This document shows positions 109-63,067 of a stretch of 64,000 bases of DNA, one piece after another. The translations under genes were made by a program, and so were the position numbers. The stretch covers positions 2,176,001-2,240,000 of the forward strand of contig CAWBKB010000001.1 of the NCBI GenBank assembly GCA_963789265.1, written 5' to 3'. Positions within the stretch are counted from its first letter, which is position 1; each line of letters begins with the position of its first letter. The notes beneath the pieces were generated by a model. The model saw only the letters and a program-made list of their open reading frames with translations, had not been told where the DNA came from and did not search any database. This DNA is from an uncultured delta proteobacterium (GTDB lineage Bacteria > Desulfobacterota > Desulfomonilia > Desulfomonilales > Desulfomonilaceae).

Positions 109-281
109 TACCAGTGCGTCATCAAACAAGTTATAATCCCGGGATATGGTGGGGCATCCCGCGTCTCGCGGGACCGGTCCTACTGGATGCCCGTGTACGC
201 GGGCATGACGGCAGGCAATCACGCCCAGGCGTGACTGTCCCACTAAAAAGACGGTGTCACTTGTTTGAAAGCGAATCGGTA
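109..281 (-). mobile_element. MITE family C (imperfect ~22-bp TIR TACCGATTCGCTTTCAARCAAGT, 3-bp TNA target duplication)
   Basis: Ends taccagtgcgtcatcaaacaagt ... acttgtttgaaagcgaatcggta, flanked by TAA/TAA. The same ends recur at 33911, 50106 and 53425. No ORF. Confidence 0.7.
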
Positions 282-379
282 TAAATTGACCTCACTTCCC
301 AAATCGCTGCTTTCCCGGTCGCCTTGACCTACTCTCTCTCTTAACTTAGATTTGGTCTTGAGAATGATGGCAATGCCGG

Positions 380-574
380 CCCGGATTTGGTCGGGCATCC
401 CGCGCGGAACGCGGGATCACCCCTAACTTCGATCCGGGCTATGTAGGGGCGGACACATGGGTCTGCCCCTACAATTGATGCCAGCGTACGCGGGCACGAC
501 AACAGGCAAACCCGCCCGGGCGCGACTGTCCCACTAAAAACACGGTGTTACTTGCATGAAAGCGAATCGCTATA
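380..574 (-). repeat. Second, tandem family C-related copy with an internal GTAG-type REP hairpin (442-473)
   Basis: About 480-574 is nearly identical to about 188-283. Contains the palindrome tgtaggggcgg...ctgcccctaca. Left end is unclear. Confidence 0.6.
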
Positions 575-605
575 AGCGGCTCCGGCTAGCGCGACCCGAG
601 GCCAA

Positions 606-2207
606 TTGATTGTGGTGGAGAGATTACCCTTGTCTTACCGGTTAAAGTTCTCCCAACTAATCAAGATATTACTCTTGGGCATTTTACTGTGCTGCGCTGT
701 ACTCCTCGCTGTGAGAGCAGCGATGTTCATGGGCTGGTACATATCGCGAGATTATCCCCTGGAATACCGGGAATTCGCGGTTATTTTCAGTACGGACTTG
801 TTGCTCCAGGGCTACAACCCCTATTCCATCGCCCTTCAGCCCGTAGCAATGAACGCCTATGGGATCGTATACAACCTGCTCGTGCTGCCTTTTGCCCAGG
901 TTTGGGGCTCCACTCCATTTGTGCATCGAGTGGTCTCTTGTTTCTTCATCGTGATGACTTGCGGCTGCCTTCTCTGGGGCCTTCGCCTGAGCCGGGTCTC
1001 CTGGTCCATGGCCACGGTCGCAGTTGCCACACTGTTCGCTTTTTTAGCCACAGGGCTCAGCATAGTTTCCCGTCCCGACAGTCTGGGGCAGTTCCTGTTT
1101 CTTGCCGGTATAGTGGTCCCCTTTGCGTATAGATACAGCGTCCGCGCGCTTGCAATCAGTATAGCGTTGTGCCTGCTGGGTCTTTTGACCAAGCCCTATT
1201 TTGTGCTCGGAGCCCCTTTTATGGCAGCGTACCTCTTTGCATTCGAGAGCAAGAGCAAAGGGCTGTGGTACGCTTTGGGTTTTGGGGTAGCCCTGACCGC
1301 AACTGTCTTCGTGACGAACGCACTTTGCGATAGTTGGCTTACAAACACAATCTTCAACCACCTGAACAATGACCTGAGCGGACAATATACCAGCGTGTCG
1401 CATCTCCGGGTCCAGATGTGGGTGCATGCTGAATCCATTTTGGGTTTTATTGCGGCATTTGTGTGGGCATACGGGTTCTCTGTGGGTTCGGGTGAGAGAA
1501 CTTTCGCGGGATCCATCGGATCGCTCTTCAATTTCAAAGACTTCGATAAACCGCTCTTTGAGGTGAAGGGTGATCTACCACTCATGATGCTCGTGTTCGG
1601 CACGATCATAATGGTCTGGAAACTTGGTCTTCACACCGGTAATTGGCAACTTTACTATCATCAATTTATGACCCCTTTTGCGTTGTGGTTTGCGGTGGCA
1701 TTTATAGACAGGCTGGAAGTCAATCGTCACTGGGCGGTGCTGTTGCCGTTGATCGCGAACCTTACGGTGCTCAACCTCTTCTACGTATCGGGTGACCTGG
1801 AGGATCACACGGAGGAATGGAAGGCGTTGGAACAGGTTGTGGCGAGCCACCACGACATGTACCACAGCGCAGGACTGGCGTATCTTATGAGCAAATACGG
1901 GAAACCGATATACAATACCGGACACGATGAATACTACGCGGCCGGTGTGCCGCACAATTTCACGGCAACGGCCGAGCAGTTCGCCTGGCAGTCAGAGATG
2001 TTCTGGCGGCAAATTGAGGAAAAGGCCCAACACAAGCAGTTGGACCTGATTATTCAAGACACCGGAGCAGGCTGGCCAATCGACAGGAATGTCTTAAAGA
2101 AAAACTATCGTCTCCTGGGATACATGCAAATGCCATTGCTTTTTGACGGCAATTGGCTGCTGGAATTGTGGATACTGAGACCGGACCAAAAAGAAAAGAC
2201 ACCCTGA
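606..2207 (+). CDS. Polytopic membrane protein, probable GT-C (ArnT/PMT-like) glycosyltransferase
   Basis: 533 aa with many hydrophobic segments. Acidic first loop (EYRE), RPD and TK motifs typical of GT-C. Upstream of a GT2/sugar-nucleotide operon. Confidence 0.6.
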   Translation: MIVVERLPLSYRLKFSQLIKILLLGILLCCAVLLAVRAAMFMGWYISRDYPLEYREFAVIFSTDLLLQGYNPYSIALQPVAMNAYGIVYNLLVLPFAQVWGSTPFVHRVVSCFFIVMTCGCLLWGLRLSRVSWSMATVAVATLFAFLATGLSIVSRPDSLGQFLFLAGIVVPFAYRYSVRALAISIALCLLGLLTKPYFVLGAPFMAAYLFAFESKSKGLWYALGFGVALTATVFVTNALCDSWLTNTIFNHLNNDLSGQYTSVSHLRVQMWVHAESILGFIAAFVWAYGFSVGSGERTFAGSIGSLFNFKDFDKPLFEVKGDLPLMMLVFGTIIMVWKLGLHTGNWQLYYHQFMTPFALWFAVAFIDRLEVNRHWAVLLPLIANLTVLNLFYVSGDLEDHTEEWKALEQVVASHHDMYHSAGLAYLMSKYGKPIYNTGHDEYYAAGVPHNFTATAEQFAWQSEMFWRQIEEKAQHKQLDLIIQDTGAGWPIDRNVLKKNYRLLGYMQMPLLFDGNWLLELWILRPDQKEKTP

Positions 2208-2269
2208 GTTGCGAAGAGTTGCCAATCGGGCTTTCGTGGCCATGCCCATGGCACGCGCCGGACGGAGCA

Positions 2270-2492
2270 ATCCCCTGTTCAGTGGGACGGGCATCTTGCC
2301 CGTCGACAGGCGGGACGCCTGTCCCACCACCCCGCCGGTGGCCAATGAACGACCCCGCGTCCCGCGGGGAGGCCGGCCCTACCGGTGCCCGTGTACACGG
2401 GCATGACAACATGTAGGGGCGGGTTTGAAACCCGCCCCTACCAAACTGTCCCACTGGAAACACGAAATCACTCGCTGGAAAGCGAATTCCTA
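2270..2492 (-). repeat. Composite REP/MITE family C-related repeat
   Basis: Hairpins gggacgggcatcttgcccgtc, gcccgtgtacacgggc and gtaggggcgggtttgaaacccgcccctac (2413-2441), ending in a family C end (gaaagcgaattccta). Confidence 0.6.
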
Positions 2493-2802
2493 TGAAAACG
2501 CCCCGTTGCCGACCGGCAATCCCGCGCTCCACGCGGGACGGCCTACTAACGTCCTCATGTTTCTCTGTGGCTTTCTAGCTATGGTGGTTGGTACAAATAA
2601 ATGATCGCGCCCAATCAAAATTACTTCTTGACGGCTTTGATGAGGCAGGTTACGCTGAAATAGGATAACTTGGAGTTGAGTTCCGAGACGCAAGATCCGG
2701 ACGCGCAGAATTGTCGCCTCGGTTTCGAATTGAGTTACTCTCTGACAAAGACGAATTAATAACGTAGATTTTCTTAGTGCAACTGTTATCTATGTCTTTT
2801 GT

Positions 2803-7018: not shown

Positions 7019-7165
7019 GTAATCATTCACTTACGAGCGATAAAGCATAGTCATTGCGAGCGAAGCGAAGCAATCTCTTCTTTTAAACGCCACTTAGATT
7101 GCTTCGGCGTTTTACTCCTCGCAATGACAAGGTGCAGAAGATCCCCCGCATAAGTGATTGATTTC
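7019..7165. mobile_element. MITE family A (IS66-like ends GTAA-CATTCA, 8-bp TSD)
   Basis: gtaatcattcac...gtgattgatttc flanked by perfect direct repeat GATTCAGC (7011-7018, 7166-7173). Internal tcattgcgag...ctcgcaatga hairpin. Confidence 0.85.
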
Positions 7166-10527: not shown

Positions 10528-10670
10528 CGGTGACTGCGAAGGGGGCTTGAATTGCGCTGGGATCTGCAAGGGTGACTAATTGCGCGCGGGAGCATGATTA
10601 GACCCTTTCGATATACTTCGTTGGTCATCCCCCGTGAGTTGCATAAAGTTTAGGAGTGGGGCTAGGCCTT

Positions 10671-11063
10671 TCAACGGCACTTCCGCGGATGACGCGGGAT
10701 TTCCTGTATCCACTTGGTGCAGAATCGTTCGGGTGAAACCGGCAATTGAAAGATGCACCTGGGCGATACAACTTTCTCACACAGCCTTCGTGGAGCAACG
10801 GGAGGGCGACACACTCTCTCAGGAACTACAACACCTCCGCAGATTCGCCGAGGAGCCACAGGCGAAGTGCATATCCTTCGCGGTGCTACGACTTGGGTAC
10901 AGATCCTCTCGGGAGTTACCGGCAAACTACAGATATTGGCGGGAGCCACTACGACGGCACATTCAGTGGCGGGCTTGCACGTTCCAGTGAAACAATTCCA
11001 ACACTGGGCTTCACCTGAAAAGACCAGAAGCAATCCGGCCAATGCTATAACCAGTTGCCGCAT
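10671..11063 (-). CDS. Secreted small protein with ~9 tandem Cys-containing decapeptide repeats
   Basis: RBS GGGGAG, signal peptide MRQLVIALAGLLLVFSGEA, repeats of (I/V/L)CxxxVxPxR. Confidence 0.7.
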   Translation of the reverse strand: MRQLVIALAGLLLVFSGEAQCWNCFTGTCKPATECAVVVAPANICSLPVTPERICTQVVAPRRICTSPVAPRRICGGVVVPERVCRPPVAPRRLCEKVVSPRCIFQLPVSPERFCTKWIQEIPRHPRKCR

Positions 11064-11166
11064 ACATCAACTCCCCAATCAGAAATCGAGCACTCAGCCC
11101 TTGTGGAAATTGTGGCGCATATTAGCACGATTTCGGCTCGTCCGCAATGCTTTAGAAGTTCATGCT

Positions 11167-11503
11167 GTAACCATTCAGTCTTGTGGGGCAGGCTTTCCGA
11201 AAGTGTCTCAAAACTAACTTGATGCCCAACATCGTGCCCCGATTAGGTCTCATTCGTACAGTCGTTGCCCTCACCCCAACCCTCTCCCAGAGGGAGAGGG
11301 AGCCGTACCAAAGAGGCTATTGGAGTCCCCTCGCCCTTTGGGAGAGGGTCAGGGTGAGGGGATTTCGTGTTACGATTTCGTCCTGTTCAGGGGGTTTTGA
11401 GACAGTTTCTTCCAACCTGCCGAGGAAACCTCTGTTCAGTGGCCGGCTGGAAAGCCCACCCCACGAAGCCATCCGCAACTTCCGGCTGTAACTGAATGCT
11501 TAC
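11167..11503. mobile_element. MITE family A (IS66-like) hosting a nested family B MITE
   Basis: gtaaccattcag...ctgaatgcttac with perfect 8-bp TSD TTCATGCT (11159-11166, 11504-11511). Confidence 0.88.
11199..11409 (+). mobile_element. MITE family B (15-bp TIR GAAACTGTCTCAAAA, 4-bp TSD)
   Basis: TSD TTCC on both sides; inserted in the ggcaggctttcc-aacctgcc hairpin; carries ccctcacccc..ccctctccc..gggagaggg REP cargo. Confidence 0.88.
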
Positions 11504-11509
11504 TTCATG

Positions 11510-13155: not shown

Positions 13156-13230
13156 TGGGGCGTCGTCAAGTGGCAAGACACGGGTCTTTGGAACCCGCAT
13201 TCGGAGGTTCGAATCCTCCCGCCCCAGCCA
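13156..13230 (+). tRNA. tRNA-Gln(TTG)
   Basis: Cloverleaf: acceptor tggggcg/cgcccca, anticodon arm cgggt-ctTTGga-acccg, T-loop GGTTCGAATCC, 3' CCA. Confidence 0.97.
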
Positions 13231-15869: not shown

Positions 15870-16083
15870 ATAACCATTCACTTGCGAGCGGCGAAAGATT
15901 GTCATTGCGAGTCCCGCGGGAAAGCAATCCATTCCTTTAAACGCCACTTAGATTGCCGGTGGGACGTCCCGCGCGGAACGCGGGATTGCCCGTCATCCCT
16001 AATAGACAGGCTGGAAGCCTGTCCCACCATGCACTCCTCGCAATGACAAGGGGCAGAAGACCCGCGCGTGAGTGCATGGTTAC
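15870..16083. mobile_element. MITE family A (IS66-like)
   Basis: ataaccattcac...gtgcatggttac with perfect 8-bp TSD GTGACTCT (15862-15869, 16084-16091). Homologous to 7019-7165 but with extra internal hairpins. Confidence 0.85.
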
Positions 16084-21439: not shown

Positions 21440-21602
21440 GTACAGCGTTTCATAAATACGGTGCCAATTGCACGGTTGCGCCGGCGTCCCTGCCGGCGTT
21501 TCTCGAACACAACCGGCACTGAGGCCGGTCCTGGATTCCCGCGTACGCGGGAATGACGGCTATGGCACCACAATACGAGACCGTATTTGTGAAAAGGATT
21601 AC
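21440..21602 (+). mobile_element. MITE family D (imperfect TIR GTACAGCGTTTCATAAATACGGT, TAA target duplication)
   Basis: Flanked by TAA/TAA, the left one being the upstream stop codon. Near-identical copy at 47857-48020. Internal gccggc and attcccgcgtacgcgggaat hairpins. Confidence 0.75.
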
Positions 21603-33910: not shown

Positions 33911-34100
33911 TACCGATTTGCTTTCAAACAAGTGAGAATGGGGCGATAACAAAGGGCACTGACCTGGCGCCATGATGGGGCTCAGGTCAGTGGCACCCAA
34001 CATCCAGTCAAGAGATCGGGTCCTGGGTGCCACGGATCTGGGCTTTGTCAGATCCGTGCCGTATTTCCTTGATTGTTCACCGTTTGATCGCGCACTGGCA
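33911..34100 (+). mobile_element. MITE family C
   Basis: taccgatttgctttcaaacaagtg...ccgtttgatcgcgcactggca flanked by TCA/TCA. Internal ggcactgacctg..caggtcagtg and cacggatctg..cagatccgtg hairpins. Confidence 0.8.
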
Positions 34101-34144: not shown

Positions 34145-34259
34145 GTGGGCATTCGCTTACGCGCGCGAAAAGATCGTGATTGCGAGCCCCGCGGCACGCG
34201 GGATTTCACTCCTCGCAATTGTAGAGGGCAGAAGATTCCCCGCGTAAGCGAACGGGCAC
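34145..34259. mobile_element. Degenerate MITE family A copy
   Basis: Homologous to 7019-7165 (cattcgcttacg, ttgcgag, ctcctcgcaat, cgcgtaagcgaa). TSD is decayed. Confidence 0.6.
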
Positions 34260-50062: not shown

Positions 50063-50105
50063 GAATGAATGAGGCACGCGCCTGTACGATAGCCGGAAGA
50101 AGTCA

Positions 50106-50302
50106 TACCGATTCGCGTTCAAGCAAGTCACATAAGTTCGCGATAAAACGATAAATTCAGCAGGGATGTGACAAAGCCACCCGCGAGACGCGGGATGGCA
50201 GCCGGAACCTCATGAACGGATGTTGGGTGGCACTGACCTGAGCACCGTTTTGGTGCCAGGTCAGTGCTGTTTGCCGATTCTCGCTTATTTGAGAACGAAT
50301 CG
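50106..50302. mobile_element. MITE family C-related element
   Basis: taccgattcgcgttcaagcaagt...cttatttgagaacgaatcg; interior homologous to 33911-34100 (reverse) and 53640-53782. Confidence 0.7.
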
Positions 50303-50675
50303 AAAATCCCTTTTGTTATGCGTCGACATACGCCTGCATGCCTCGGGCTGTGACAAGCATGAGGCATGCTCTAGACTGGACGCAAAATGAAGGCTCCACC
50401 GGATTAATCCGGCGGTCGGTGCCACCAGGTTCGAAGTCGGCATCAGCGTAGGATGCTGGTGAGCCCGCGTTTTGCGCGGGAGAACCGCATCAATCGAGAA
50501 AAAACCGCGCATCCCGCGTTGGCGGGACGGTTCGTTCAGCGTGCCGCGGGACTTACCAGCATCGTACCAGCATCTTTGCATCTTGTGCCGCGCCAGTACA
50601 CGGTTGCTACGTACTGAAGGCGAGGGCTTTCCTCCCATTCCCCGCGGGAGACAATAACACCAGGAGACTTTTAAG

Positions 50676-51917: not shown

Positions 51918-51973
51918 CCGACTCTGAAGGCTGTAGTAAACCTCGAAGCACCGGAATAGAGAACTAACTGACC

Positions 51974-52717
51974 ATGCACGAACGGATCAATAAAGATCGT
52001 TTCGAACCAGCCTACGCCCAGTTGGCTGCCATTCTTCGTCGCCAGATAGCTGGAGGAGTCTATCCGCCCGGCGAGAAAATCCCGTCAGAGTCCTCCATTA
52101 GCAGACAATATGGCCTTTCGGTGATGACAGTTCGTCAAGCCGTCGGAGTACTGATAGAACAAGGACTGATCGAGCGCATTCGAGGCTCCGGATCATTCGT
52201 CAAACCGGTCACATTGACCGGATCGAGATTTGACCTGGACAGCATCAAGGAGATTTTCGAGGATCCCGAACGCACACGTGTCAAGGTGCTACAAATAAGT
52301 CTCGCAAGGGCGGACGCGAAAACCGCTGAAATGCTGGATCTGCACGAAGGGGTAAGAATAATTCTCATCCGCCGTCTCTTACTGCGTGACAACCGGCCCG
52401 TAATGTTCCACGAAGGGCGTATCCGCTGTGATCCCACTCGCCCCGTCGTGGAGGCCGAATTGAGCGTTGGGCCTCTTTCCGATCTGTTCAACGGGCACGG
52501 GGGCGGCCAAGCGAAGAAGGGTGAACTGACCGTTATGCCCACCGTCCTAAATCACGAGGAAGCCGGTCTTTTGAATCAGTCCGAGGGCACCCCCGTCTTT
52601 CGTTTAGAGTACCTGGTTTATGACTTCAACGACGCTCCGTTCGGTTGGGGGTGGTTCACCGCTGCACCCGAAACCATGTCTTTGAAGACCAAACTGGGGT
52701 TGTGGGACGAATCTTAG
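51974..52717 (+). CDS. GntR (HutC/UTRA) transcriptional regulator
   Basis: IPSE..YGLSVMTVRQA..GSGSFV wHTH; UTRA-like C-terminus. Confidence 0.9.
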   Translation: MHERINKDRFEPAYAQLAAILRRQIAGGVYPPGEKIPSESSISRQYGLSVMTVRQAVGVLIEQGLIERIRGSGSFVKPVTLTGSRFDLDSIKEIFEDPERTRVKVLQISLARADAKTAEMLDLHEGVRIILIRRLLLRDNRPVMFHEGRIRCDPTRPVVEAELSVGPLSDLFNGHGGGQAKKGELTVMPTVLNHEEAGLLNQSEGTPVFRLEYLVYDFNDAPFGWGWFTAAPETMSLKTKLGLWDES

Positions 52718-52734
52718 AGCGCGGAGAGGTCGTC

Positions 52735-53424
52735 GTGCCGAAGAGAACTGTCAGAACTATAGCCCATGAGATGGGAGAACTGGCAACGCTGTTAGCCGAC
52801 CTAAGGGAAGAAGAAGCCCTGCTGGCCCTCAAACGGCACATCGCTGCCGGGGTGCCGCCCACTGAACTACTTCACGCCTGCCAGAGGGGGATGCGTCTGG
52901 TCGGTTCGATGCACGAGAAGGGGCATTATTACATCGCAGGGTTAATTATGGCCGGCGAGATAATGCGCGAGGCCGTTGAACTACTCAGGCCGGTCATGAT
53001 TAAAGAGTGGCGCGGTAAGGCCTACGGACGGGTGCTGCTGGGGACCATTGCCGGCGATATCCATGACATTGGAAAGAACCTTTTCAGAGACCTCCTGGAA
53101 TGTCACGGCTTTACCGTCTTGGACCTCGGAGTTGATGTGCCTCCTGCCGACTTTGTGGCAGCGGAATTCGAGTTCAAGCCTCATCTGATTGCCGCTTCGG
53201 CTCTCATCACGGACAGCTTTCCTCATCTTCGGGAGCTTGTTCAATTATTCGAGGATAGCGCTCGGCGCAGGTCGGCCCGGCGACCCTTTATACTCATTGG
53301 TGGAGGACAAGTCGACGAACGAGTCTTTCGGATGTGCGGAGCCGACAATTGGGGAGAGGACGCTTTTTCAGGGATTCAGATTTGTAGGAGACTCATGAAA
53401 GATGCCGGCAAGCCCGCAGTCTGA
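52735..53424 (+). CDS. Second corrinoid-binding protein
   Basis: GDIHDIGKN, DLGVDV and IGGG motifs; closely follows gntR. Confidence 0.88.
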   Translation: MPKRTVRTIAHEMGELATLLADLREEEALLALKRHIAAGVPPTELLHACQRGMRLVGSMHEKGHYYIAGLIMAGEIMREAVELLRPVMIKEWRGKAYGRVLLGTIAGDIHDIGKNLFRDLLECHGFTVLDLGVDVPPADFVAAEFEFKPHLIAASALITDSFPHLRELVQLFEDSARRRSARRPFILIGGGQVDERVFRMCGADNWGEDAFSGIQICRRLMKDAGKPAV

Positions 53425-53623
53425 TTCCATTCGCTTTCAAGCAAGTGACACCGTGTTCTTAGTGGAACAGGCATCTTGCCGGTCGTCATGCCCGCGTACG
53501 CGGGCATCCAGACTGGACCCCGGATCGAAGTCCGGGGGGTGATCCCGCGGGACGCGGGACAGGTAGAATGCCTGCCCACCGTATCCTGACCCGGATTGTC
53601 ACTTGTTTGATGGGGCATTGCTA
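53425..53623 (+). mobile_element. MITE family C, followed by a partial inverted copy (53640-53782)
   Basis: ttccattcgctttcaagcaagtg...acttgtttgatggggcattgcta flanked by TGA/TCA; reverse-complement homolog of 109-281. Confidence 0.72.
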
Positions 53624-53797
53624 TCAAACGATAAATACTGCACGGATCTGACAAAGCCTCCCGCGTCCCGCGGGATGGCACCCGGGACTACATGAATGGA
53701 TGTTGGGTGCCACTGACCTGAGCACCGTCATGGCGCCAGGTCAGTGCCGTTTGCCGATTTTCACTTATTTGAGAGCGAACTAGTCTGAAGCAGTTTG

Positions 53798-55579
53798 TTA
53801 CAATCCGGAACTGATCCCGGCTAAGCTGCGGCTTTGCGGCCCATGGGCAGACACAAAATTCAGGTGGTAAACGAACAGCTTACTAAATTCCGGATGGGAG
53901 CCAAGGTCCAGCACTTGGATTATAGACGCCAATCCCTCCATATCCTTCAAGATATCCCGATTGAGCAGGGCAAGGGAGGCTCCGGAAAGTGATGAATTTC
54001 CCGCAAACGTGATCTGCCCAGCGTACTCTGTCGGCAACAATCCTATGCGTTTCAGGTTTTCAGGATTCAAGTGGTAACCGAACGCGCCGCCCACGATTAT
54101 CTGCTCCAGGTCGCTTACAGAACGACCCGCTTCGCGCAATAACGTGAGAATCCCAGTTATGGCCGCGCTCTTGGCCAACTGCACCTGTCGGATGTCCCTC
54201 TGGCTTAGAAAGATGTTTTCCGTCAAGTAGTAACGGTCGCCCTGCAACCGATCAGTCAGTCTTTTGTCAGCCTCGGGATTGAACGCTCCACTGGGAGCAA
54301 TGATCCCTGAAGTGATCAGCGCTGCCACAAGATCGACCAGGCCGCTTCCGCAAATGCCCACGGGCGGCCCATCCCCTATGGTGGTGAAGCGAGGCACCAT
54401 GTCGCTCCCAAGGGTAACGGAATTTATGGCACCCGGCACGGCTCGACAGCCGCATGAAATATTCATGCCTTCCAGTGCCGGTCCCATCGCGCAAGATGTG
54501 CCCAGCAATCGATCGGGTCCTTCGATCAGCACTATTTCTCCGTTTGTACCGATGTCAACAAATAGGGTGCACGCGGGGCAGGACCGATAATCGATTGCTG
54601 TGAGACCGCCGACAATGTCCGCGCCAACATAGGCTGCTGCGCCCGGCAAAAGGATAAGTCGCCCTTGCCGGGCAATGGGAAGGCCGCAACGTTCTCCCTC
54701 CAGCGCAAGGGGTTTAAGAAAGGTAGGGCGGAAAGGAGCCAGAGCGAGCGAGAACGGGTTGACTCCTGCGAGGATATGGAGCATCGTCGTGTTGCCTGCC
54801 GCAGTCATCAGAACGACTTGATCCCGACTTCGCCTGGCCCCCAGAGCCTCATCGAGCATCAACCCCAGTTGTGCGATTAGCGCAGTTCGCAGAATTGATA
54901 GGCCGTCGGGATTCTGTCGGCAGAAGTTGATGCGGGTGATCACGTCGCCGCCATAGGCGGTCTGGGGATTCAACGCCGAACTCCTGCCGAGCAATTCTCC
55001 GCTGTCCAGGTCGAATAAATACAACGAAAGGCTTGTTGTGCCGACGTCAACCGCGGCGCCGAGAACAGGATTTTGGTCGAAACGAATATCCAGGAGCTCG
55101 TTTCCGAATACAATGCCGTACGGTTGGTCTACACTTCCATCCCAGGTCGCTACTTTGTCAAGAATGCCGGGATCGGAAACTCGGAAAGGAAGAGTTTCCA
55201 CGTACGGGATTGAACCTCGCCCCTTTTCCGGCAAAACCACGCGCTTCACTGGACTATTGAGAGCAACCTCGCGAAATTTCGGACCGAACACGGACTGGAG
55301 TTGAGTCCAGGCATCGCTTATGGTGACGGAAACATTCCCGAGCACTTTTGCTTTGCATGCCAGGCGAATGTCTGCAGATTGGCCTTCCAGATGCGCACGT
55401 TCTGCATCGTCAGGAGAGCTCAATTTTCCGTGCGCAACTACTCGGCATTTGCCACAGATTGCTCTACCGTCACAAGTCGATTCCACTCCCATTCCAGCAC
55501 GACGAATGCATGACAGCAGGGTTTCACCCTTCGCCGCTTCTATCGTCAATTTGTTTCCGCTGAATGATACCGTAGGCAA
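53798..55579 (-). CDS. Reductive activator of corrinoid proteins (RACo/RamA-like, 2Fe-2S + ASKHA ATPase)
   Basis: CDGRAICGKC..RLAC, DVGTT, DIGTNGE, GPALEG and GICGSG motifs. Confidence 0.93.
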   Translation of the reverse strand: MPTVSFSGNKLTIEAAKGETLLSCIRRAGMGVESTCDGRAICGKCRVVAHGKLSSPDDAERAHLEGQSADIRLACKAKVLGNVSVTISDAWTQLQSVFGPKFREVALNSPVKRVVLPEKGRGSIPYVETLPFRVSDPGILDKVATWDGSVDQPYGIVFGNELLDIRFDQNPVLGAAVDVGTTSLSLYLFDLDSGELLGRSSALNPQTAYGGDVITRINFCRQNPDGLSILRTALIAQLGLMLDEALGARRSRDQVVLMTAAGNTTMLHILAGVNPFSLALAPFRPTFLKPLALEGERCGLPIARQGRLILLPGAAAYVGADIVGGLTAIDYRSCPACTLFVDIGTNGEIVLIEGPDRLLGTSCAMGPALEGMNISCGCRAVPGAINSVTLGSDMVPRFTTIGDGPPVGICGSGLVDLVAALITSGIIAPSGAFNPEADKRLTDRLQGDRYYLTENIFLSQRDIRQVQLAKSAAITGILTLLREAGRSVSDLEQIIVGGAFGYHLNPENLKRIGLLPTEYAGQITFAGNSSLSGASLALLNRDILKDMEGLASIIQVLDLGSHPEFSKLFVYHLNFVSAHGPQSRSLAGISSGL

Positions 55580-55591
55580 GAGGCTTTCCCT

Positions 55592-56290
55592 TCAGATCGC
55601 CGCCTGGATCGAGGAAGAACGAAATGCCGAATCAAAGCCCAAATGGGTCAATTCAATAGTAGTGAACGGCGGGATGATCACGAAATCATCATCATTCCAA
55701 GGACCCAAGAGGAAATTCTTGAGATAACGGTCAGTTCCCTGGAGAATGAGGAGTTCCAAGTTCAGGGTCGCGGAGATATCGCGCGCGTACGGAATAAGGC
55801 CGGGCAGGTCGTAGGCGCCGGTATCTATAAGAGCCAGGAATTTGTAATGCGCCAGCATCCTTCGATAGATCCGTTCCGTTCGTTCCGGACCGAACCGCGC
55901 CATAACAGCTTGGTACTCCTTCCAGATATTTACCTCTCCCTCCAGCCAGCCTTTCGTCAGAAAATAGACGCCACCGTGCCGATTACAACCATCCCTGGTT
56001 TCTTTGGACCCCAGGAGCAAGGTTATGCAGTCATCCACTCTGGGAATGACCAACTGATAGTCTCCGGACTTCAGTCCGGCCACGGCATTGCCGCAGAAGC
56101 CAAATCCGAGGAGCACTCTCTTTACTCCATTTATCCGGTCCAATTCCTCTTGCAATCGCCTACGCAGGGAGTCCGTCACCAGGTGCAGCCCGGATTCGAC
56201 CCATACGAAACTATGCGCACAGTTTGTTTCTACGGCGGCTTTTTCGAGTTCGTTGCGAATGGTGTTGCAGGCTATAATCACTGTTTCCAC
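55592..56290 (-). CDS. DUF1638 domain protein
   Basis: IIAC, GLH, GFCGN, DDCI.LLLG and YFLTKGW motifs; commonly found next to corrinoid systems. Confidence 0.85.
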   Translation of the reverse strand: METVIIACNTIRNELEKAAVETNCAHSFVWVESGLHLVTDSLRRRLQEELDRINGVKRVLLGFGFCGNAVAGLKSGDYQLVIPRVDDCITLLLGSKETRDGCNRHGGVYFLTKGWLEGEVNIWKEYQAVMARFGPERTERIYRRMLAHYKFLALIDTGAYDLPGLIPYARDISATLNLELLILQGTDRYLKNFLLGPWNDDDFVIIPPFTTIELTHLGFDSAFRSSSIQAAI

Positions 56291-56690
56291 TTTCGGTATC
56301 CTTCTATTCGTGAATTGACCATTATTATAGCCCAGCGGACCGGAGTTCGGAAAGCGTCCATACATCAATTCGGGTGAAGATCCATGGAAAAATGTGCAGG
56401 CATCCATTTACACCGTGGAAAAGGTTGTCATTGAGAGCGCGGAGAACCAAGATTCCCTGGTCGGGCCGCTGTTCAAATGACATTCTCTCGCGTGAATGAA
56501 AGCTCGCTATGAGCGAATTTTCTCGTTGCCCTGTGGTGCGGCATCGTGGTATTCATATTCATAGATTGAATACTCATCAAAATAATAACCCTCAAAACCC
56601 ACGAGCCTTGGAATTCGAGCCAATTCCGAGCACCCGACGTGTTGGCTCCACGGGGCGTCCCGTTCTTCCTCGTCGGAACCAGGAGAAATA

Positions 56691-56890
56691 TTGATGGAGA
56701 TCAAATTGAAGACAACGCCGGCTGATGAAAACGAAAGAACTTTTTGGGATGAGCATGGGGCTTTATGGCAGGTACCGAACATCCAAGTCCGTTTGTGGCA
56801 TATTTCGAGCAACGACAAAGGGATTAGACGGCAAGGACATCCACGCATTTTACAAGAACGGCGCTCTATTTATCGTGAACTGGTCTGACG
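56691..56890 (+). pseudogene. Possible decayed Hsp20 fragment
   Basis: RBS AGGAG before a short ORF; an overlapping frame reads LDGKDIHAFYKNGALFI, resembling the Hsp20 C-terminal AxYxNGxL motif. Confidence 0.3.
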
Positions 56891-57180
56891 CAAGGGACTA
56901 TTTCAATTCCAGTAACTGTTCACCCGGTAATCAATCCCGCGACCGCGCGGGGATCACCGTTTCGCGAGACGAGCGATACGCAAAGAACGCGGACAAAAAT
57001 GGATAGCCTATTCAGCGCCACGCGAGTCACCCACGCGTACAGTCATGGCGGAATTGCCCTTACTGTCGCAGGCCGAGACTTATCATGTCTTTGGTGGATA
57101 AGTGCATAGCGCAACAGAATTCTCCGTGGTCTCTGCGTTCTCCGTGCTGAAATATTGCGGTCATCGTACAGGAGGTAATC

Positions 57181-57942
57181 ATGTTCTTGGAAGGAAAACT
57201 CGCATTGGTAACAGGCGCTTCCATGCCCAAAGGCATCGGGAGACACGCCGCGCTTACGCTTGCGAGACATGGGGCGAATGTAGTGGTAACAGGCTTTCAT
57301 CACATGGAAGGGCCGACGGCTCTGGCAGAAGATATTAGAGCTATGGGCCGAAAAGCCGTGGCCGTGCAGATGGACGCAAGTGTTGCTGCGGATGTGGCCA
57401 AAGGCTTTGCAACCATTAAAGCTGAGCTTGGATCGGTCGATATCGTTGTGAACAACGCCGCCCTCATGGGGCACAACATAAGCATTGCCAGGACCACCAC
57501 GGAAGAATGGGATTATGAAGTCAAGCTTTGTCTCAATTCCGCGTTCTATTGCATCAAGCAGGCATGGCCGGATATGTGCGCCAAGAAATGGGGCCGCATT
57601 GTGAACATGACGTCAGTGGCCGGTGTTTTGGGCGGCGCCGGCCAGACGAGCTACGGGGCTGCCAAGGCAGGTCTCATCGCGCTCGCAAAGTCGGCAGCCC
57701 TGGAGGGTGCGAGGTTCAACATCACGGCAAATAGCGTACTCATCGGCATCTGTGCCACTGATAGTTATGACCTGCTCCCCGAGCCGGTTCGTCAGGCCGT
57801 TGAGAAAAAGACTGCCTTCCGGAGACCTGCAAACCCCCAGGAAATCGCCGACGCCATCGCTTACCTGTGTTCGGACAGCGCAGCATATATGACGGGATCC
57901 ATCATGAATATGATGGGCGGTCTTGACCTGTTTGTGTTTTGA
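57181..57942 (+). CDS. Classical SDR oxidoreductase (FabG-like)
   Basis: TGA...GIG, VNNA and YGAAK motifs; RBS AGGAGG. Confidence 0.92.
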   Translation: MFLEGKLALVTGASMPKGIGRHAALTLARHGANVVVTGFHHMEGPTALAEDIRAMGRKAVAVQMDASVAADVAKGFATIKAELGSVDIVVNNAALMGHNISIARTTTEEWDYEVKLCLNSAFYCIKQAWPDMCAKKWGRIVNMTSVAGVLGGAGQTSYGAAKAGLIALAKSAALEGARFNITANSVLIGICATDSYDLLPEPVRQAVEKKTAFRRPANPQEIADAIAYLCSDSAAYMTGSIMNMMGGLDLFVF

Positions 57943-58149
57943 GCGGTGCCGCCCCCCCCGCATCACAGACATGAAGGCCATTAAAGCAGTTCTCGAAAAT
58001 TGTCACGGAATGTTTGCGGGTGCCACTGCTGAACAAGTCGGCAGTGGCACTCCATACAGAACTCTTATTCGCTGCCCTCTTGGAATTTTCCGTTAGGCAT
58101 GAGTGAGGACCCGCACCTCCGGTCCGACCTGGGGCACAGTAACAACCTT

Positions 58150-59964
58150 CTAGAAATCGGCCTCCATTACTCCCTGGAAACCGAATATGGGTTGAATTTC
58201 CCGGTTAGGATTGACCGCCCATCCAGAGGGGCCGTCAGCGGCCGTAGGACTGACAAATGTTCCGACTCCTGCCACTGTAGTAAAAGTGTTGGCATATCGC
58301 TTGTCAATGCAGGCATATTTGAACCATCCGCCCGGCTGCCAATATGCGCCACGCAAGTGGACAATCAGACCTTCCAACAGCTTCCAGTCGACGCCGGCAG
58401 TAGCTTCCCACCCCAAGGAATCGTCGGGAATCGACGGAGCGGGAGCTGCGAGAATGTTCTGCGGTGCAGTCAGAATCACTCCGTCTGTGCCGAGTTGCTG
58501 GCCCAGCAGCAAGACTTTGCCTCCTCCATTAGTTCCATCAGACGACGGAACCAGGCAGCCCCAGCCCCAGCCTTTTGACACCCTATTCGCAGTGAAGAGT
58601 GTGCCATAGATGTTCAAGTTGCAAGCAACTGCATAGTCAACTCTTGCTCCGAAAGACGAGGCATCGGTTATAAAGCCTTCACCGTTCCTGTTGACGGCAT
58701 TCAGGCCTCCGCCATATTGATAACCCATCAGAAGGCTGTAAGGCAGGAAGATGTTTGTACAAGCAAAATTTGCTCCATTGACCACATTCTCCCACGATTG
58801 TTTCTTAATCCAGATCCCATGTCTGCGGTCAGGGCCGGGAAGCCACGAATAAAACAGACTCAGTTTGGAGGGACCGCACATTGCTCCTAATTCCACCATA
58901 TACTTCCAGGCTTCCAGATAGTACGGCGCAAACAGGCTCCCGCCGCCGTCCGCGAAATCAGCGACATCTGTGGCGGCCTTTTGCACGGTTAGCTGTTCTC
59001 TAAAATAGGCCAGTTCATTGTTGAAAAACAACCTGCCGTTGTTGTACCTGAAGTAAAACGATCCGTCTTCAACCACAGCATCGTAGGTTCTGGATGTGAG
59101 GGCATTGCTGTTTGTAGTTGCCCCACCCGGCCCATTGTGAATAGGAATATATTCCCCAAGTAAGCCAAATTCGAATGGACCATTGTCATATAAAAAGACC
59201 CATTCGGGATGAAGGTTGCGCTTGCGATCGTTGTCCCATAAACGATACAAAATAGGCTCTGCGGGCGCGGCGTTGACCGCAGCGGCCTGAGGACCGGTAT
59301 TGTTAGTGGTGCTGACAACGTTCCGGCCTGCCATGGAATTGGTCCAAGTCTGGCCTCGCCAGGGATGGAAGACAAATCCAATTCTCATTGGACCATAATT
59401 TGACCAGACCCCGAACGTCTCCGTCGTGGCATTGTGCCGGTCGAACAATAGCCCCAGTCCGTGCGCCAGGGGGCGCTTCCCTGCTACTATTTGTCCCCAC
59501 GGAACTTGCGCCTCCAACCACCAGTAAGTCCAGGTCCCTGAGGCCATCGGGTTGTACACGCCGATGGCCGTGTTGTTGGGGTACAGGCCGTATTGGGAAG
59601 TCCCCGAGCCAATCTGGTAAAGGCCTCTGAGCATTATGGCCGGATTGATTATGATTTCAGGCAGAATCTCCATTCTCGACCATTGGAGGGACGCGTCCGA
59701 TCCCGTGACAAGGCCGTACGGCTCGCCGTTTATGGTGCGAAATCCGACAAACGAGTTCATGGAGTTGAATTTCGCGTTTGCAGGTGCGTCGGCGGCAGCA
59801 CTGGCGTGATCGTACTGTCCGAAAAAACCGGCTCGACCGTATTGGTCGAAGTAGTCGTAGCCCCATATCCACGATCCTGTGAGGTTCAATTCGAACGCGT
59901 ATCCTGGTGAGGCGACGAACCACAATCCTGCTAGAATGACTAGCATCACTCTGAATCTATACAT
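58150..59964 (-). CDS. Large outer-membrane porin-like beta-barrel protein
   Basis: RBS AGGAGG, signal peptide ending GYA-F, aromatic/Gly-rich strands, C-terminal F. Confidence 0.75.
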   Translation of the reverse strand: MYRFRVMLVILAGLWFVASPGYAFELNLTGSWIWGYDYFDQYGRAGFFGQYDHASAAADAPANAKFNSMNSFVGFRTINGEPYGLVTGSDASLQWSRMEILPEIIINPAIMLRGLYQIGSGTSQYGLYPNNTAIGVYNPMASGTWTYWWLEAQVPWGQIVAGKRPLAHGLGLLFDRHNATTETFGVWSNYGPMRIGFVFHPWRGQTWTNSMAGRNVVSTTNNTGPQAAAVNAAPAEPILYRLWDNDRKRNLHPEWVFLYDNGPFEFGLLGEYIPIHNGPGGATTNSNALTSRTYDAVVEDGSFYFRYNNGRLFFNNELAYFREQLTVQKAATDVADFADGGGSLFAPYYLEAWKYMVELGAMCGPSKLSLFYSWLPGPDRRHGIWIKKQSWENVVNGANFACTNIFLPYSLLMGYQYGGGLNAVNRNGEGFITDASSFGARVDYAVACNLNIYGTLFTANRVSKGWGWGCLVPSSDGTNGGGKVLLLGQQLGTDGVILTAPQNILAAPAPSIPDDSLGWEATAGVDWKLLEGLIVHLRGAYWQPGGWFKYACIDKRYANTFTTVAGVGTFVSPTAADGPSGWAVNPNREIQPIFGFQGVMEADF

Positions 59965-60368
59965 AAATCCTCCTTTCACACCCTACTATATTCACTGCAA
60001 CTAATTCACACCGCGAATAGTCACGTAATGACTACCAATATGCTACGAAACCCTATGTGGACGCCTCCCAGGGCCGATGTTCCTCCGCGATTACCACCGT
60101 ATCGACCCGCTAGTGTCCCTAGTGGGGTCGTGGGTGGAATTGTCAAGAGTCATCAAATGGGTAGTCGCGGTGTGACTATGCCGATACCATCAACCCTCGT
60201 ACGATCCCCTTCCACGGAATCTTACGCCACAGTCAGTCGCCTGACTCGCTTGACTCATGGGATACCCGAAAACAAGGCTTGGACTCTGGGGTCTCTCTTG
60301 CAAAAGCCTCACACAGAAATTCGGGTCAATTCCTACATGTCGGTAGTTGGTTATATTGGGTAGAAGTA

Positions 60369-60397
60369 ACCATACGGAGCATGAATGTTCTTGTCAA
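60369..60397 (-). promoter_or_regulatory. Putative sigma70 promoter of the porin gene
   Basis: Minus strand reads TTGACA-17 nt-TATGGT. Confidence 0.5.
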
Positions 60398-60794
60398 GAG
60401 TTTTCTCACCCTTCCAGCATTCCTTCACATGCGCGGAGAGAAATGGCGGCCTTGCATTGCGAGCAGTGAATGGTTGGATAGCCTTTCAGCCTGTCGCTGA
60501 CGGATGGGCGTCTCCGCGTTCCGCGCGGGGCATCCCCACTGCAAAGGGCCGGTCCAACGGATAAAATTGCACCCCTTACTATCCAGCCTGTGGCGCAGAC
60601 TTTCCAGTCTGCGGATTCTCGAACTGGATTTGGCGGACTGGAAAGTCCGCCCCACGGCAATCTGAGCCATTAGAGGAAAAGATTCCCTTCCCGCGGCAAG
60701 CGAGACTCGCCATTACAAGCTTCCGTCGCCTGTAAGTGAATGATTGGCGGCAGCACGTTCAAGACGTGACACAATGTGAGTAACCTGTAAGAAG

Positions 60795-61499
60795 TTATTG
60801 AAAGAAGCTCTCATCGCAGCTAATTCCGGCTTCTTCAAACTCTTTATACAGTTTGGTCAGCCTGTCGTTAGCAATACGTGCCTGCCGAGGTTTTTCTTCC
60901 GTTTCATGGTCCGTGGCATAACAGGCAAGACACCATTGGCACTGGTGCGTTGCCCCGAGACTCATCACGTCAAAGTTTCCGACCAAGAAGGTCCGGCGCT
61001 CTTTACGATTTCCGAAGTTTTCGACTGCGGCGAGAAACTCCAGGTTGACCTGCATAGAAACCTTATTGCCCTCTCTTGCGATATGAATGTAATCCTCCAA
61101 CGTGAGGATCGGACCTTGGGTGTCCTTGAAATCCTGAAATCTTACCACCATGTCGTTCAGGGAAAAGAGCTCGGTTTCTATAAGAATCCCTGCTTCATTC
61201 AGCGCTCGATAATCCTTCTGTAAATATCTGTTGGCAATCATTACAGCCTGGGATACGTGAGGACACAGATTGTGCGGGCAGCCTCGAGCATAGCATTTTC
61301 TGAAGCTGAATTCTTTGCTGTCTACAGTTCCGGAAAAACGACAGAAGAAGAGGATCGCTCGATATCCGTAGCTTGTATGAGTGAAATCGACTTCGTTGAT
61401 TTCAAAGGACGGGAGACAGACGATTGTTGCCCCTCTTTTTCCATGAGCAACAAGCTCGCCAATGCGAATGGGAGGTTCGAGACCAATCGTTTGATTCAT
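60795..61499 (-). CDS. Cys-rich hypothetical protein (possible metal/Fe-S binding)
   Basis: CYARGCPHNLCPH and CQWCLAC clusters; co-oriented with the dsrE genes. Confidence 0.7.
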   Translation of the reverse strand: MNQTIGLEPPIRIGELVAHGKRGATIVCLPSFEINEVDFTHTSYGYRAILFFCRFSGTVDSKEFSFRKCYARGCPHNLCPHVSQAVMIANRYLQKDYRALNEAGILIETELFSLNDMVVRFQDFKDTQGPILTLEDYIHIAREGNKVSMQVNLEFLAAVENFGNRKERRTFLVGNFDVMSLGATHQCQWCLACYATDHETEEKPRQARIANDRLTKLYKEFEEAGISCDESFFQ

Positions 61500-61638
61500 G
61501 GCTTGTGCCTCTGTGTCGAATGAAGGTGTCGTCCGTCCGCGGTTTCCCTCCGGATCGCTGGAGGCCCACACGCGATGTAGAGAAGCTGATTCCAGACCTC
61601 ACGGGGTCTCCTCCGACCAGCCTATGAAGAAATCACCG

Positions 61639-62007
61639 TTAATAGTTCAGAACCGCCTGCGAGTTAAGGCACTCACTCAAAATTGTGGCGCCGGCGACCA
61701 CTTCCGATTTATCAATCAGGTCGAATGGCTCAATGTTGCGCTCCTTGATACAGGGAGAGCAGACAAGGATTCTTCCTCCCAGCTCCAGAAAGGAATCCAT
61801 CAATTTCTTCAACGGATCGAAACCACCCGCATGCACGCTTTCAGCGTACCCCTTCTTTGCCAATAAGACTCCATACCCCTGGAGAACAATAATTCCCGGC
61901 TCGTCCATTGCCAGAGCCGCGTTGCCAAGGGCGAATGGGATGGTGGCCCTCTCAGGGTCATCTCCGGCATGTGTTGCAATGATTACGACGCCTTCTTTTT
62001 GTTCCAT
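61639..62007 (-). CDS. DsrE family sulfur-carrier protein
   Basis: DPERATIPF, LQGYGV, CSPCIKER and VAGA motifs. Confidence 0.85.
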   Translation of the reverse strand: MEQKEGVVIIATHAGDDPERATIPFALGNAALAMDEPGIIVLQGYGVLLAKKGYAESVHAGGFDPLKKLMDSFLELGGRILVCSPCIKERNIEPFDLIDKSEVVAGATILSECLNSQAVLNY

Positions 62008-62071
62008 GAATAAGGCCCTTTCTTGTGCTAAATTTTGTTCGGCGACAGCCTCGCAAGGCCTGCGCTTTAGT

Positions 62072-62365
62072 TCACTCTTCGCAACCATCCAAATAATCAA
62101 TCAACCCTTTGAGACGCGGGCGGGCCAAGCCATAACGAACGACCGTTCCCTCGCGCTCGCAAACCAAAATCCCATGCGTCCGCATAATCGAGAGTTGATG
62201 AGAGACATCCGGCTGCGAGGCCCCCAGACGGTTAGCCAAGCCGGTGACGTTCTCCCCGCCTTTACTGAGAATTGCCAAAATGCGGAGGCGCAGAGGATGA
62301 GCAACTGCCTTGACGATTTCGGCCACGTCCTCGGCTCGCTCCAGGTTGTCTATGAGACTGTTCAT
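62072..62365 (-). CDS. ArsR/SmtB family transcriptional regulator
   Basis: KAVAHPLRLRIL, SQPDVSHQL and REG..VRY motifs; C-terminal Cys. Confidence 0.9.
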   Translation of the reverse strand: MNSLIDNLERAEDVAEIVKAVAHPLRLRILAILSKGGENVTGLANRLGASQPDVSHQLSIMRTHGILVCEREGTVVRYGLARPRLKGLIDYLDGCEE

Positions 62366-62379
62366 CGGCGTAATTTTAC

Positions 62380-62921
62380 TCAGATGAATAGCTGATTGCT
62401 CGAATTGGCAGCGTGGGCCAAAAAGCTGGCGACACCAACGTATTCCACGCCGGGATACTCGATAAGCTCTTCTCGTCTGAAGCCCATGAGGTCCATGGAC
62501 ATCTCGCAGACGCAGATCTTCACGTCAAGCTCAGCCGCTTGGGCGAAGAGCTGCTCCAGGTCCGGGGCCCCTTTTTCTTCATCAGACCCTTCATCATTGC
62601 CGTTCCCATGCCGCCCATATTCATCTTGGACAGCTTCAACTTGTTGTAACCCGTGGGCAGCATCCAGCCGAACATCCTCGACATCAAGTTCTTTCCTCCA
62701 ACTTGGGCCTGTGGCTTGCGCAGTGCAGCGGTGCCCCAAAAGGTAAAGAAAAGCACTACCTTCATGTCCATGGCAGCCGCGCCCACAGCGATGATCATCG
62801 CGGCCAGCACCTTGTCGAGATCGCCGGAGAATATGACCATCGACATCTTGTCTTCCCTGGGCGGTCCCAATTCATCGACTTTTTGCTTCAGATCGTTGAA
62901 CTCGGATATGTCTAAACTCAT
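62380..62921 (-). CDS. DsrE2/DrsH-like sulfur-carrier protein (frameshift in homopolymers at ~62570)
   Basis: FSGDLDK, FFTFWG and LSKMNMGGMG in one frame; GAPDLEQL..CEMSMDLMG..GVASFL in the next. Confidence 0.88.
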
Positions 62922-62934
62922 TGTCACTCCTTAC

Positions 62935-63067
62935 GTAATCATTCAGTCTTGTGGGGCAGTCCCGCGAGGCGCGGGATGGCCTGCCGAGGAAACCCCTGTT
63001 CAATGGCGGGCTAGAAAGCCCACCCCACGAAGCCACCGGCAAATTCCGGCTGTAACTGAATGCATAC
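62935..63067. mobile_element. MITE family A (IS66-like)
   Basis: gtaatcattcag...ctgaatgcatac, TSD CTCCTTAC/CTCCTTAT; homolog of 11167-11503 without the nested family B element. Confidence 0.85.

Follow-up and report, generated by a model that had tools for sequence, protein, structure and literature searches.

A 17-nt hairpin, apparently among the smallest mobile DNA units, stands in place of the tips of other palindromic repeats in a Desulfomonilaceae genome

The subject of this study is a hairpin of 17 or 19 nt, here called the unit, which is present in about 600 copies in the genome of an uncultured soil bacterium of the family Desulfomonilaceae (assembly G000, 6.06 Mb in 9 contigs, 52.5% GC). 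A stretch of 64,000 nt from this genome, referred to as the window (G000:C1:2176001-2240000), was the starting point, as a sequence-only reading of it had listed 15 copies of a small palindrome lying inside other repeats. The unit reads T-CCCGCG-loop-CGCGGG-A with a loop of 3 or 5 nt (consensus RRR or NRRRA) and is a discrete, non-coding hairpin of the kind of the repetitive extragenic palindromic (REP) sequences, carrying neither a GTAG nor a CGTC tag. It overwrites the tips or centres of other palindromic repeats at no fewer than 26 types of site, and appears to rank among the smallest mobile DNA units known.

The pattern CCCGCG-N2-8-CGCGGG occurs 14 times in the window, compared with a mean of 0.12 and a maximum of 2 in 100 dinucleotide shuffles, and 349 times genome-wide, which bears out the enrichment proposed earlier. 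Among the 5014 hairpins with a 7-bp stem in the genome, TCCCGCG is the top-ranked stem (217 hairpins). When copies are scored against TCCCGCG/CGCGGGA arms with 3- or 5-nt loops, 197 are perfect, 194 have one mismatch and 240 have two, the corresponding numbers being 0, 2, and 41 for a reversed pattern and 1, 6, and 86 for a direct-repeat pattern. In the window itself this scoring yields eight perfect copies and seven with one mismatch, with those at 67, 2352, and 60513 diverging more, and all 15 positions listed by the sequence-only reading show the hairpin or a decayed form of it. Copies with a 2-nt loop, however, belong to a different family, the CGTC-tagged hairpins of the REP/NTS/SRM type reading (C)GTC-ATTCCCGCG-YA-CGCGGGAAT-CCAG, with members at 21537, 47955, 53491, and probably 67, so that the earlier list is right as to the hairpin and, probably for the copy at 67, wrong as to the family.

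Once copies are oriented by their purine-rich loop and aligned, conservation drops immediately outside the terminal T and A: positions of the unit are 91-99% conserved, a figure inflated by preselection of copies with at most one mismatch, and flanking positions reach at most about 60-78%. The base at -1 is a purine (R) and that at +1 a pyrimidine (Y) in 84 of 122 context clusters, and the outer A and T formerly counted as part of the motif (ATCCCGCG..CGCGGGAT) are host bases. On one strand the 3-nt loops are GGA, AGA, AGG, and GAA, and the 5-nt loops CGGAA, AGGAA, and CAGAA. The isolated unit folds at -8.1 kcal/mol (as DNA). Compensated double changes make up 46 of the 240 two-mismatch copies as compared with 1 of the 41 control matches, and a variant with C:G instead of the T:A end pair (CCCCGCG/CGCGGGG) accounts for 33 compensated copies genome-wide. 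Nearly all copies are intergenic; 40 of 217 perfect ones fall inside a crude mask of open reading frames (ORFs) covering 79% of the genome, mostly in short ORFs or near ORF ends. The unit is never nested within itself in this genome, pairs at most 12 nt apart occur twice genome-wide with no inverted-doublet arrangement, and no Rfam family matches it. Collapsed GGA-loop units reading TCCCGCGGGA exist as 38 stand-alone copies. The possibility that the unit is the footprint of a longer element with TCCCGCG ends was rejected, as no such longer element recurs and TCCCGCG copies that do not close are mostly collapsed or decayed units.

The relation of the unit to its hosts is apparent from empty sites. 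When the 35-nt flanks of 451 copies were matched back to the genome and clustered, 26 context clusters had paralogous empty sites in which the flanks lie 3-11 nt apart (mostly 5-8, rather than the "about 8-9" given before) where the unit stands otherwise; by eye, these reduce to perhaps 15-18 unrelated site types. No target-site duplication is seen in any of the 26 clusters, and host bases are lost instead. The earlier claim of a discrete unit that replaces a few host bases without duplication therefore holds, with fixed ends and in many unrelated repeats, and the three pairs of empty and filled alleles on which it was built all proved correct. Hosts are of four kinds, namely GTAG/GTGG-tagged REPs, SRM hairpins, a 160-nt repeat, and an element of about 110 nt with 13-bp inverted ends, which resembles a miniature inverted-repeat transposable element (MITE) and is here called MITE-like. 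Empty target hairpins are exemplified by GTGGGACAG-GCTTC-CAGCCTGTC and GACAAAGCC-CAGATCCG-TGGCACCC.

The bases that are lost follow a rule. The terminal bases of the replaced stretch can form a Watson-Crick pair in 20 of the 26 types, compared with 3-14 of 26 (mean 6.7) when the same interval is slid by 1-5 nt. The lost stretch is thus usually a small closed loop, and the T:A pair of the unit takes over the place of its closing pair. Empty alleles fold as clean host hairpins (-10.1 and -9.7 kcal/mol), and filled alleles fold with the unit as a new tip on 3-5 remaining host pairs. At one tip of the MITE-like element, where other copies carry CGACG or the unit, a 56-nt REPIN-like doublet is found. 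In copies of the 160-nt repeat with two filled sites, the intervening 55 nt can drop out, leaving one unit.

Once established, a filled site seems to multiply with its carrier. Each site type has one dominant loop, suggesting a single founding event per type and subsequent multiplication. In the 160-nt family, 17 of 21 filled copies share the GGA loop, which is consistent with conversion among paralogues. In a tree of this family, the 17 filled copies do not separate from the 11 empty ones (8 state changes, 9.1 with shuffled labels), and well-supported branches force at least two changes, a scatter consistent with gene conversion between paralogous copies or with poor resolution of the tree. 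The nearest relative, G001, was compared over 400 kb and for three window regions, with genes being 87-91% identical. State changes at orthologous positions comprise CGTAGCG in G001 for TCCCGCGGGA in the MITE-like element (first tip, window 15912-15921) and the 160-nt element at C5:306927. Movement of the unit is therefore real on the time scale separating G000 and G001, but rare.

The unit occurs in all six other genomes of the genus, with 54-133 perfect copies each. In the family its presence is patchy, six other genera having 140, 118, 39, 37, 20, and 16 copies and twelve having 0-6, and it is essentially absent from 16 genomes of the sister family. In G015, which belongs to a different genus, it replaces the linker, or 6 nt of the linker, between inverted SRM hairpins, and the filled MITE-like element is also present there and in a public record titled Desulfomonilaceae. 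Among the matches listed for public contigs, the pattern with a 3-nt loop is found at no fewer than 120 loci from many phyla.

Table 1. Copies of the unit, empty alleles and SRM-type hairpins. Positions refer to the window; slashes bound the unit (shown as two dots) or the bases found in its place, and rows without a position are empty sites from the genome-wide search.
Feature	Position	Strand	Remarks
Unit, perfect, loop TCT	157..173		within gtggggca/../ccggtcc
Unit, perfect, loop CGGAA (5 nt)	398..416		
Empty allele GGCATC	2290..2295	+	REP hairpin GACGGGCA-TCT-TGCCCGTC
Variant unit CCCCGCG-TCC-CGCGGGG	2353..2369		C:G replaces T:A end pair
Unit, perfect, loop CTCCA	2520..2538		
Unit, one mismatch (TTCCGCG), loop GATGA	10681..10699		
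Empty allele GCTTTC	11192..11197	+	after GTGGGGCAG; separate terminal-inverted-repeat element directly behind
Collapsed unit TCCCGCGGGA	15912..15921		first tip of MITE-like element
Unit, perfect, loop CGGAA	15967..15985		stands for GGCATC, first hairpin of REPIN-like REP doublet
SRM-type hairpin, not unit, ATTCCCGCG-TA-CGCGGGAAT	21535..21554		CGTC-tagged, GACG/CCAG-type flanks
Empty allele CAGATCCG, site 1 of 160-nt repeat	34033..34040	-	completes 10-bp host hairpin
Unit, one mismatch, loop GCA	34187..34203		tip of MITE-like element, attgcgag/../tttcactcc
Further SRM-type copies	47953-47972, 53489-53506		same CGTC-tagged family as 21535..21554
Unit, one mismatch, loop AGA	50179..50195		fills site 1 of 160-nt repeat (50140-50299)
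Unit, one mismatch, loop TTTTG	50463..50481		
Decayed unit TCCCGCG-TT-GGCGGGA	50512..50527		
Unit, perfect, loop GGA	53543..53559		linker position ccggggtga/../caggta
Unit, perfect, loop TCC	53659..53675		fills site 1 of 160-nt repeat (53620-53779); inverted relative to most copies there
Unit, one mismatch, 4-nt loop	56935..56952		
Decayed copy from the sequence-only list	60513..60535		
Unit, perfect, loop AGG	62960..62976		stands for GCTTTC in GTGGGGCAG/../(c/t)(a/g)gcctgcc
Empty site			gtgggacag/GCTTC/cagcctgtc
Empty site			ggtgggacg/GGCATC/ttgcccgtc
Empty site			gtggggca/GGCATC/ctgcctgcc
Empty site			cgcgtacgcgg/GCATC/cagactgg (SRM 3' arm)
Empty site			gacaaagcc/CAGATCCG/tggcaccc
Empty site			ggtgct/CAGGTCAG/tggcaccc
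Empty site			gattgcttcg/CTTCG/ctcgcaatgaca
Empty site			gattgctt/CGTCG/tttcactcctcg
Empty site			ccggggtga/CGAATGG/caggcagg

The MITE-like element (inverted ends TTGTCATTGCGAG ... CTCGCAATGACAA) lies at 15890-16076, 7068-7157, and 34199-34251 of the window; both of its internal hairpin tips are hot spots of the unit, with the 56-nt REPIN sharing one of them. Another element, of about 220 nt with the inverted ends GAAAGTGTCTCAAAA ... TTTTGAGACAGTTTC, occupies 11198-11415 and occurs also at 46613-46849 and 17046-17072; it sits at the REP hairpin tip GTGGGGCAGGCTTTCC/../TTCCAACCTGCC, which is a target of the unit as well, possibly with a duplication of TTCC. Intergenic mosaics turn over as a whole, as 345 nt at window 2250-2594 correspond to 9 nt in G001; mosaics of 280-360 nt (2250-2594, 11154-11515, and 16834-17116) compare with 9-44 nt there, and in the converse case a spacer of 13 nt at 10626-10638 compares with 162 nt. 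A carrier reading ..GGAGGCTGTTGCGTAA/unit/CTTTCC.GAATTCGTGGCACGATGGCGAC has at least seven copies in 400 kb of G001:C16, each missing at the orthologous place in G000, which has a single copy (C1:377433); it is also present in a public record titled "uncultured delta proteobacterium".

The genes of the window are ordinary chromosomal ones, coding for sugar-nucleotide enzymes, a molybdate-type ABC transporter, SecA, PFOR, IlvD, and proteins of the corrinoid methyltransferase type. SecA appears as two overlapping ORFs on the minus strand (24065-26708, comprising 25572-26708 and 24065-25759), which may reflect a frameshift or an assembly error. The sole Rfam match in the window is a tRNA gene at 13156-13227. 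When soil-metagenome contigs from one study, which are short and of low depth, are placed on window 44001-64000, paralogous repeats pile onto the repeats of the window.

With regard to machinery, G000 possesses three RAYT-REP systems (REP-associated HUH tyrosine transposases with their repeats) and five Ssn-type GIY-YIG nucleases, all outside the window. The RAYT loci at C7:407388-410672, C3:98234-101473, and C5:550783-554025 have REP stems of their own, GACAGGC, ACCGGCA, and CACTGCTGG, respectively, with the RAYT genes themselves at C7:408888-409172, C3:99734-99973, and C5:552283-552525, and a 112-nt tandem of REP doublets lies alongside the first. Two further proteins of about 370 residues, encoded at C4:126425-129763 and C1:90663-94001, combine an N-terminal Y1_Tnp domain with a long C-terminal extension and have no flanking hairpin repeats. 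RAYTs cleave REPs in single-stranded form next to the hairpin, and the cut end accepts any 3'-OH in vitro; the 5'-phosphotyrosine left by HUH enzymes can be resolved by any 3'-OH (PMC8266576). The unit is associated with REPs. GRCNGGC-type REPs lie far over control in six of seven genera with at least 16 units and in one of twelve genera with fewer. Where a GTRG tag is present it belongs to the host REP, 243 of 389 copies having no tag within reach, and in GTRG-tagged REPs the purine loop is on the tag strand in 30 clusters versus 12 (121 versus 24 copies). For Y1_Tnp genes co-occurrence is uninformative, as 33 of 41 genomes have the family, unit-free ones among them, and for Ssn the fit is weak.

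We hold with moderate confidence that the unit is a tag-less mini-REP which a trans-acting enzyme places at hairpin tips and which carrier amplification and gene conversion then multiply. A new site would originate in an infrequent "tip swap" while the DNA is single-stranded and folded, in which the loop and closing pair of a target hairpin would be cut out and the unit, bringing its own closing pair T:A, would be joined in by a hairpin-processing nuclease or ligase acting in trans. Fixed ends in many contexts, together with the closed-loop rule, point to enzyme-defined ends on folded single strands, and the association with REPs makes the RAYTs of the same genomes the leading candidates. A filled site would multiply along with its carrier repeat, gene conversion between carrier copies would spread the filled state, and slippage shrinks some GGA-loop copies to TCCCGCGGGA. 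A stronger claim would make this hairpin of 17 nt the smallest mobile DNA unit yet described, moving by a novel tip-swap reaction, whether catalysed by a RAYT or by another hairpin-processing enzyme; it is tentative, and we regard it as possible rather than probable.

Several observations weigh against placement by such an enzyme. No gene is tied to the unit, and we therefore infer the enzyme step: no RAYT or Ssn gene examined has a flanking unit. The cleaving enzyme proposed earlier, for example an HUH/RAYT nuclease or a reverse transcriptase, stays hypothetical. RAYT or TnpA(Y1) genes flanked by the motif, as envisaged at the outset, did not turn up among the six Y1_Tnp loci of G000 nor among 20 RAYT-like loci of five relatives (G010, G014, G015, G018, and G019), most of which have their own hairpin family, and the GTAG tag used by RAYTs is missing from the unit. 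Co-occurrence with REPs has exceptions, G023 having 312 REPs and 4 units and G010 having 9 REPs and 37 units, and the sampled genomes are kin and non-independent. The 451 copies fall into 153 flank contexts, but many singleton contexts share the flank consensus GGGCRR/../YTGCCC, so that independent founding events must number well under 153. In the 83 colinear intervals of G000 and G001, nearly all of the 29 unit copies differ by presence or absence of the whole carrier, and just one orthologous carrier differs in unit state, which indicates that movement of the unit itself is rare or old. Finally, loop orientation shows no replication-strand bias.

The main rival explanation dispenses with a dedicated enzyme and supposes that a stable GC hairpin is copied by template switching during replication, or by microhomology-mediated repair between stalled hairpins, with conversion and carrier amplification following. 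It agrees with the lack of a cognate gene among the loci examined, with the rarity of changes at orthologous sites, and with the nature of the targets, which are hairpins or palindrome centres; the purine and pyrimidine bias at -1/+1 could represent a 1-nt microhomology, and at site 1 of the 160-nt repeat the loop of one copy is inverted, a known outcome of switching within a hairpin. However, template switches usually have variable end points, whereas the ends of the unit are constant across contexts, microhomology does not exceed one base, and the closed-loop rule of the replaced stretches is not predicted. Moreover, the 44 neighbouring pairs within 600 nt found among 389 copies include one with identical loops and four with inverted loops (2.2 of each expected), so that local copying is not seen. 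An origin of copies from their neighbours was rejected for this reason, and constant ends together with unshared loops also led us to reject a classification as template-switch (quasi-palindrome) mutation. Altogether, we consider an enzyme-free origin rather unlikely.

A second rival derives the unit from the core of the Ssn-related hairpin CGTCAT-TCCCGCG-ya-CGCGGGA-ATCCAG, put in place during repair of single-strand cuts made by Ssn. CGTC-tagged REPs and SRM hairpins have been defined as a family, and their pairing with Ssn was published in 2025 (PMC3733652; PMC11893778); in single-stranded form, such hairpins are bound by Ssn, which cuts close by (PMC11893778). In G000, an array of SRM hairpins with the same 7-bp stem surrounds the gene for a 96-residue Ssn-type GIY-YIG protein at C7:415115-415336. 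Between C7:414900 and 415800, about ten CGTC-tagged hairpins GTCGTCATTCCCGCG-ya-CGCGGGAATCCAGA are present, several of them 65-68 nt apart and superficially CRISPR-like, and four more small GIY-YIG genes lie elsewhere in this genome, three of them with an in-frame stop. The unit replaces GCATC in SRM 3' arms of G000 and stands between inverted SRM hairpins in G015. Nevertheless, the unit has neither a CGTC head nor a C following the palindrome, both of which are reported to be decisive for cutting and binding by Ssn, and Ssn cuts upstream of the hairpin and not in the tail-side linker (PMC11893778). None of the Ssn-type genes of G000 is flanked by the unit, these genes being bracketed by SRM hairpins instead. 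Ssn homologues of other genomes are likewise bracketed by their own versions of the SRM hairpin, which in G005 and G018 differs in stem and loop (ATTCCCGC-GAAG). Homologues (E<=1e-5) were found in 7 of 13 genomes with at least 16 units, as compared with 4 of the 12 genomes below that number, and were not found in G001, G002, G004, and G006 (56-133 units; genomes 76-94% complete). Ssn as the driver was rejected on account of this weak phyletic fit, and an origin from its hairpin appears improbable.

Even less likely, in our judgement, is that the hairpin is a selected functional site, such as a protein-binding palindrome or a CsrA-like RNA hairpin, which is kept where it arises and is not mobile. 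CsrA-like regulators bind RNA hairpins with loops of the GGA or AGGA type, and the loops of the unit are confined on one strand to GGA, AGA, AGG, GAA, and CGGAA/AGGAA; the compensated double changes, the intergenic location, and the persistence over many genera of one family would also suit a functional site. Against it, the one-step swap of 3-11 nt for 17-19 nt rules out gradual convergence, both orientations occur without strand preference, presence is patchy among close genera, and Rfam offers no match. The case named at the outset as contrary to mobility, in which every repeat family had the motif from the beginning and empty alleles lost it by deletion, is hardly credible, being contradicted by the junction sequences: slippage does remove part of the unit to give TCCCGCGGGA, and also host DNA between two units, but the empty alleles hold 3-11 bases which are absent from filled ones and complete canonical host hairpins, and the 327 host-type REP hairpins of G000 far outnumber those REP copies that are filled, whose largest cluster has 53.

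The unit has close precedents, and the earlier statement that no named element behaves in this way was too strong, as REPs and REPINs, REPs within palindromes (PMC3733652), and the nested small dispersed repeats (SDRs) of cyanobacteria come near to it. Like REPs and REPINs, the unit is a short, high-copy, intergenic hairpin which lies in repeat mosaics and co-occurs with REP-rich genomes (PMC3116915, PMC3333891, PMC8266576). Unlike them, it lacks the GTAG/GTGG tag, its conservation stops at T and A, it has 17-19 nt instead of the 20-40 nt of REP and REPIN hairpins, it does not form the inverted doublets of REPINs (two adjacent pairs genome-wide), it has no flanked RAYT gene as in a REPtron, and it sits inside other REPs, replacing their tips. 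With CGTC-tagged SRM hairpins the unit shares the TCCCGCG/CGCGGGA stem core, and it is often located in or between them (PMC3733652; PMC11893778). SRM hairpins have a CGTC head, an 8-9-bp stem starting with AT, a 4-5-nt loop, and a CCA(G) tail; the unit possesses neither the head nor the AT-start stem nor the tail, its flanks being R and Y and not T and A; loops of the unit have 3 or 5 nt, compared with 2 nt in SRM hairpins of G000 and 4-5 nt elsewhere. In contrast to SRM hairpins, the unit does not flank ssn genes and co-occurs with them weakly.

The repeats SDR1-8 of heterocyst-forming cyanobacteria, reportedly presented by Elhai et al. in 2008, are said to be hairpin repeats of 21-27 nt nested in other repeats or minitransposons. 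By description, the unit is like them in being very small, hairpin-forming, insertion-like, nested, and not known to have an enzyme of its own, and differs in size and phylum. SDR5 is reported to insert precisely between two bases of the HIP1 octamer (PMC4390886), whereas the unit replaces 3-11 bases; cyanobacterial small dispersed repeats are also treated in PMC5861425. Single REPs or dimers occur at the centres of other palindromes in several species (PMC3733652), and there Di Nocera et al. (2013) gave two cases in which unlinked empty target palindromes were lacking, in contrast to the dozens of empty and filled alleles found here. GC clusters of yeast mitochondria are, like the unit, small GC-rich palindromes that spread, and they merge and shuffle as well, but they are organellar, longer (about 40 nt), and accompanied by putative target-site duplications (PMC4478555). 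Classification as a MITE was rejected, as hosts lose bases instead of gaining a target duplication, and no longer element with TCCCGCG ends was found. Because the unit lacks the defining tags of both REP super-families and none of the genes examined is cognate to it, it seems to be a variant of the REP/SDR kind that is a member of neither family. On nested or replacing REP-like insertions, the literature searched yielded nothing beyond PMC3733652, and on GIY-YIG proteins together with REPs it yielded the Ssn paper (PMC11893778). In the literature searched, there is no report of a size of 17 nt, of the replacement mode, of the complementary-ends rule, or of dozens of coexisting empty and filled alleles.

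To our knowledge, forty years of work have not explained how REPs spread: in vitro, RAYTs are able to cut and rejoin them, but we know of no observed insertion. Repeats of the CGTC type were long without an enzyme until the description of Ssn (PMC11893778), which may have a part in their spread. As the same hairpin repeat exists with and without the unit at dozens of site types in G000 and its family, the exact bases lost and gained can be read, giving rules from which substrates for assays follow: T and A as ends, a purine before and a pyrimidine after, a closed-loop replaced stretch, and no duplication. The mosaics are layered, with units in REPs and REPs in MITE-like elements, which is relevant for intergenic annotation and for the use of repeats as markers. 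If the tip swap is true, the hundreds of empty and filled junctions would be a natural record of REP-type insertion.

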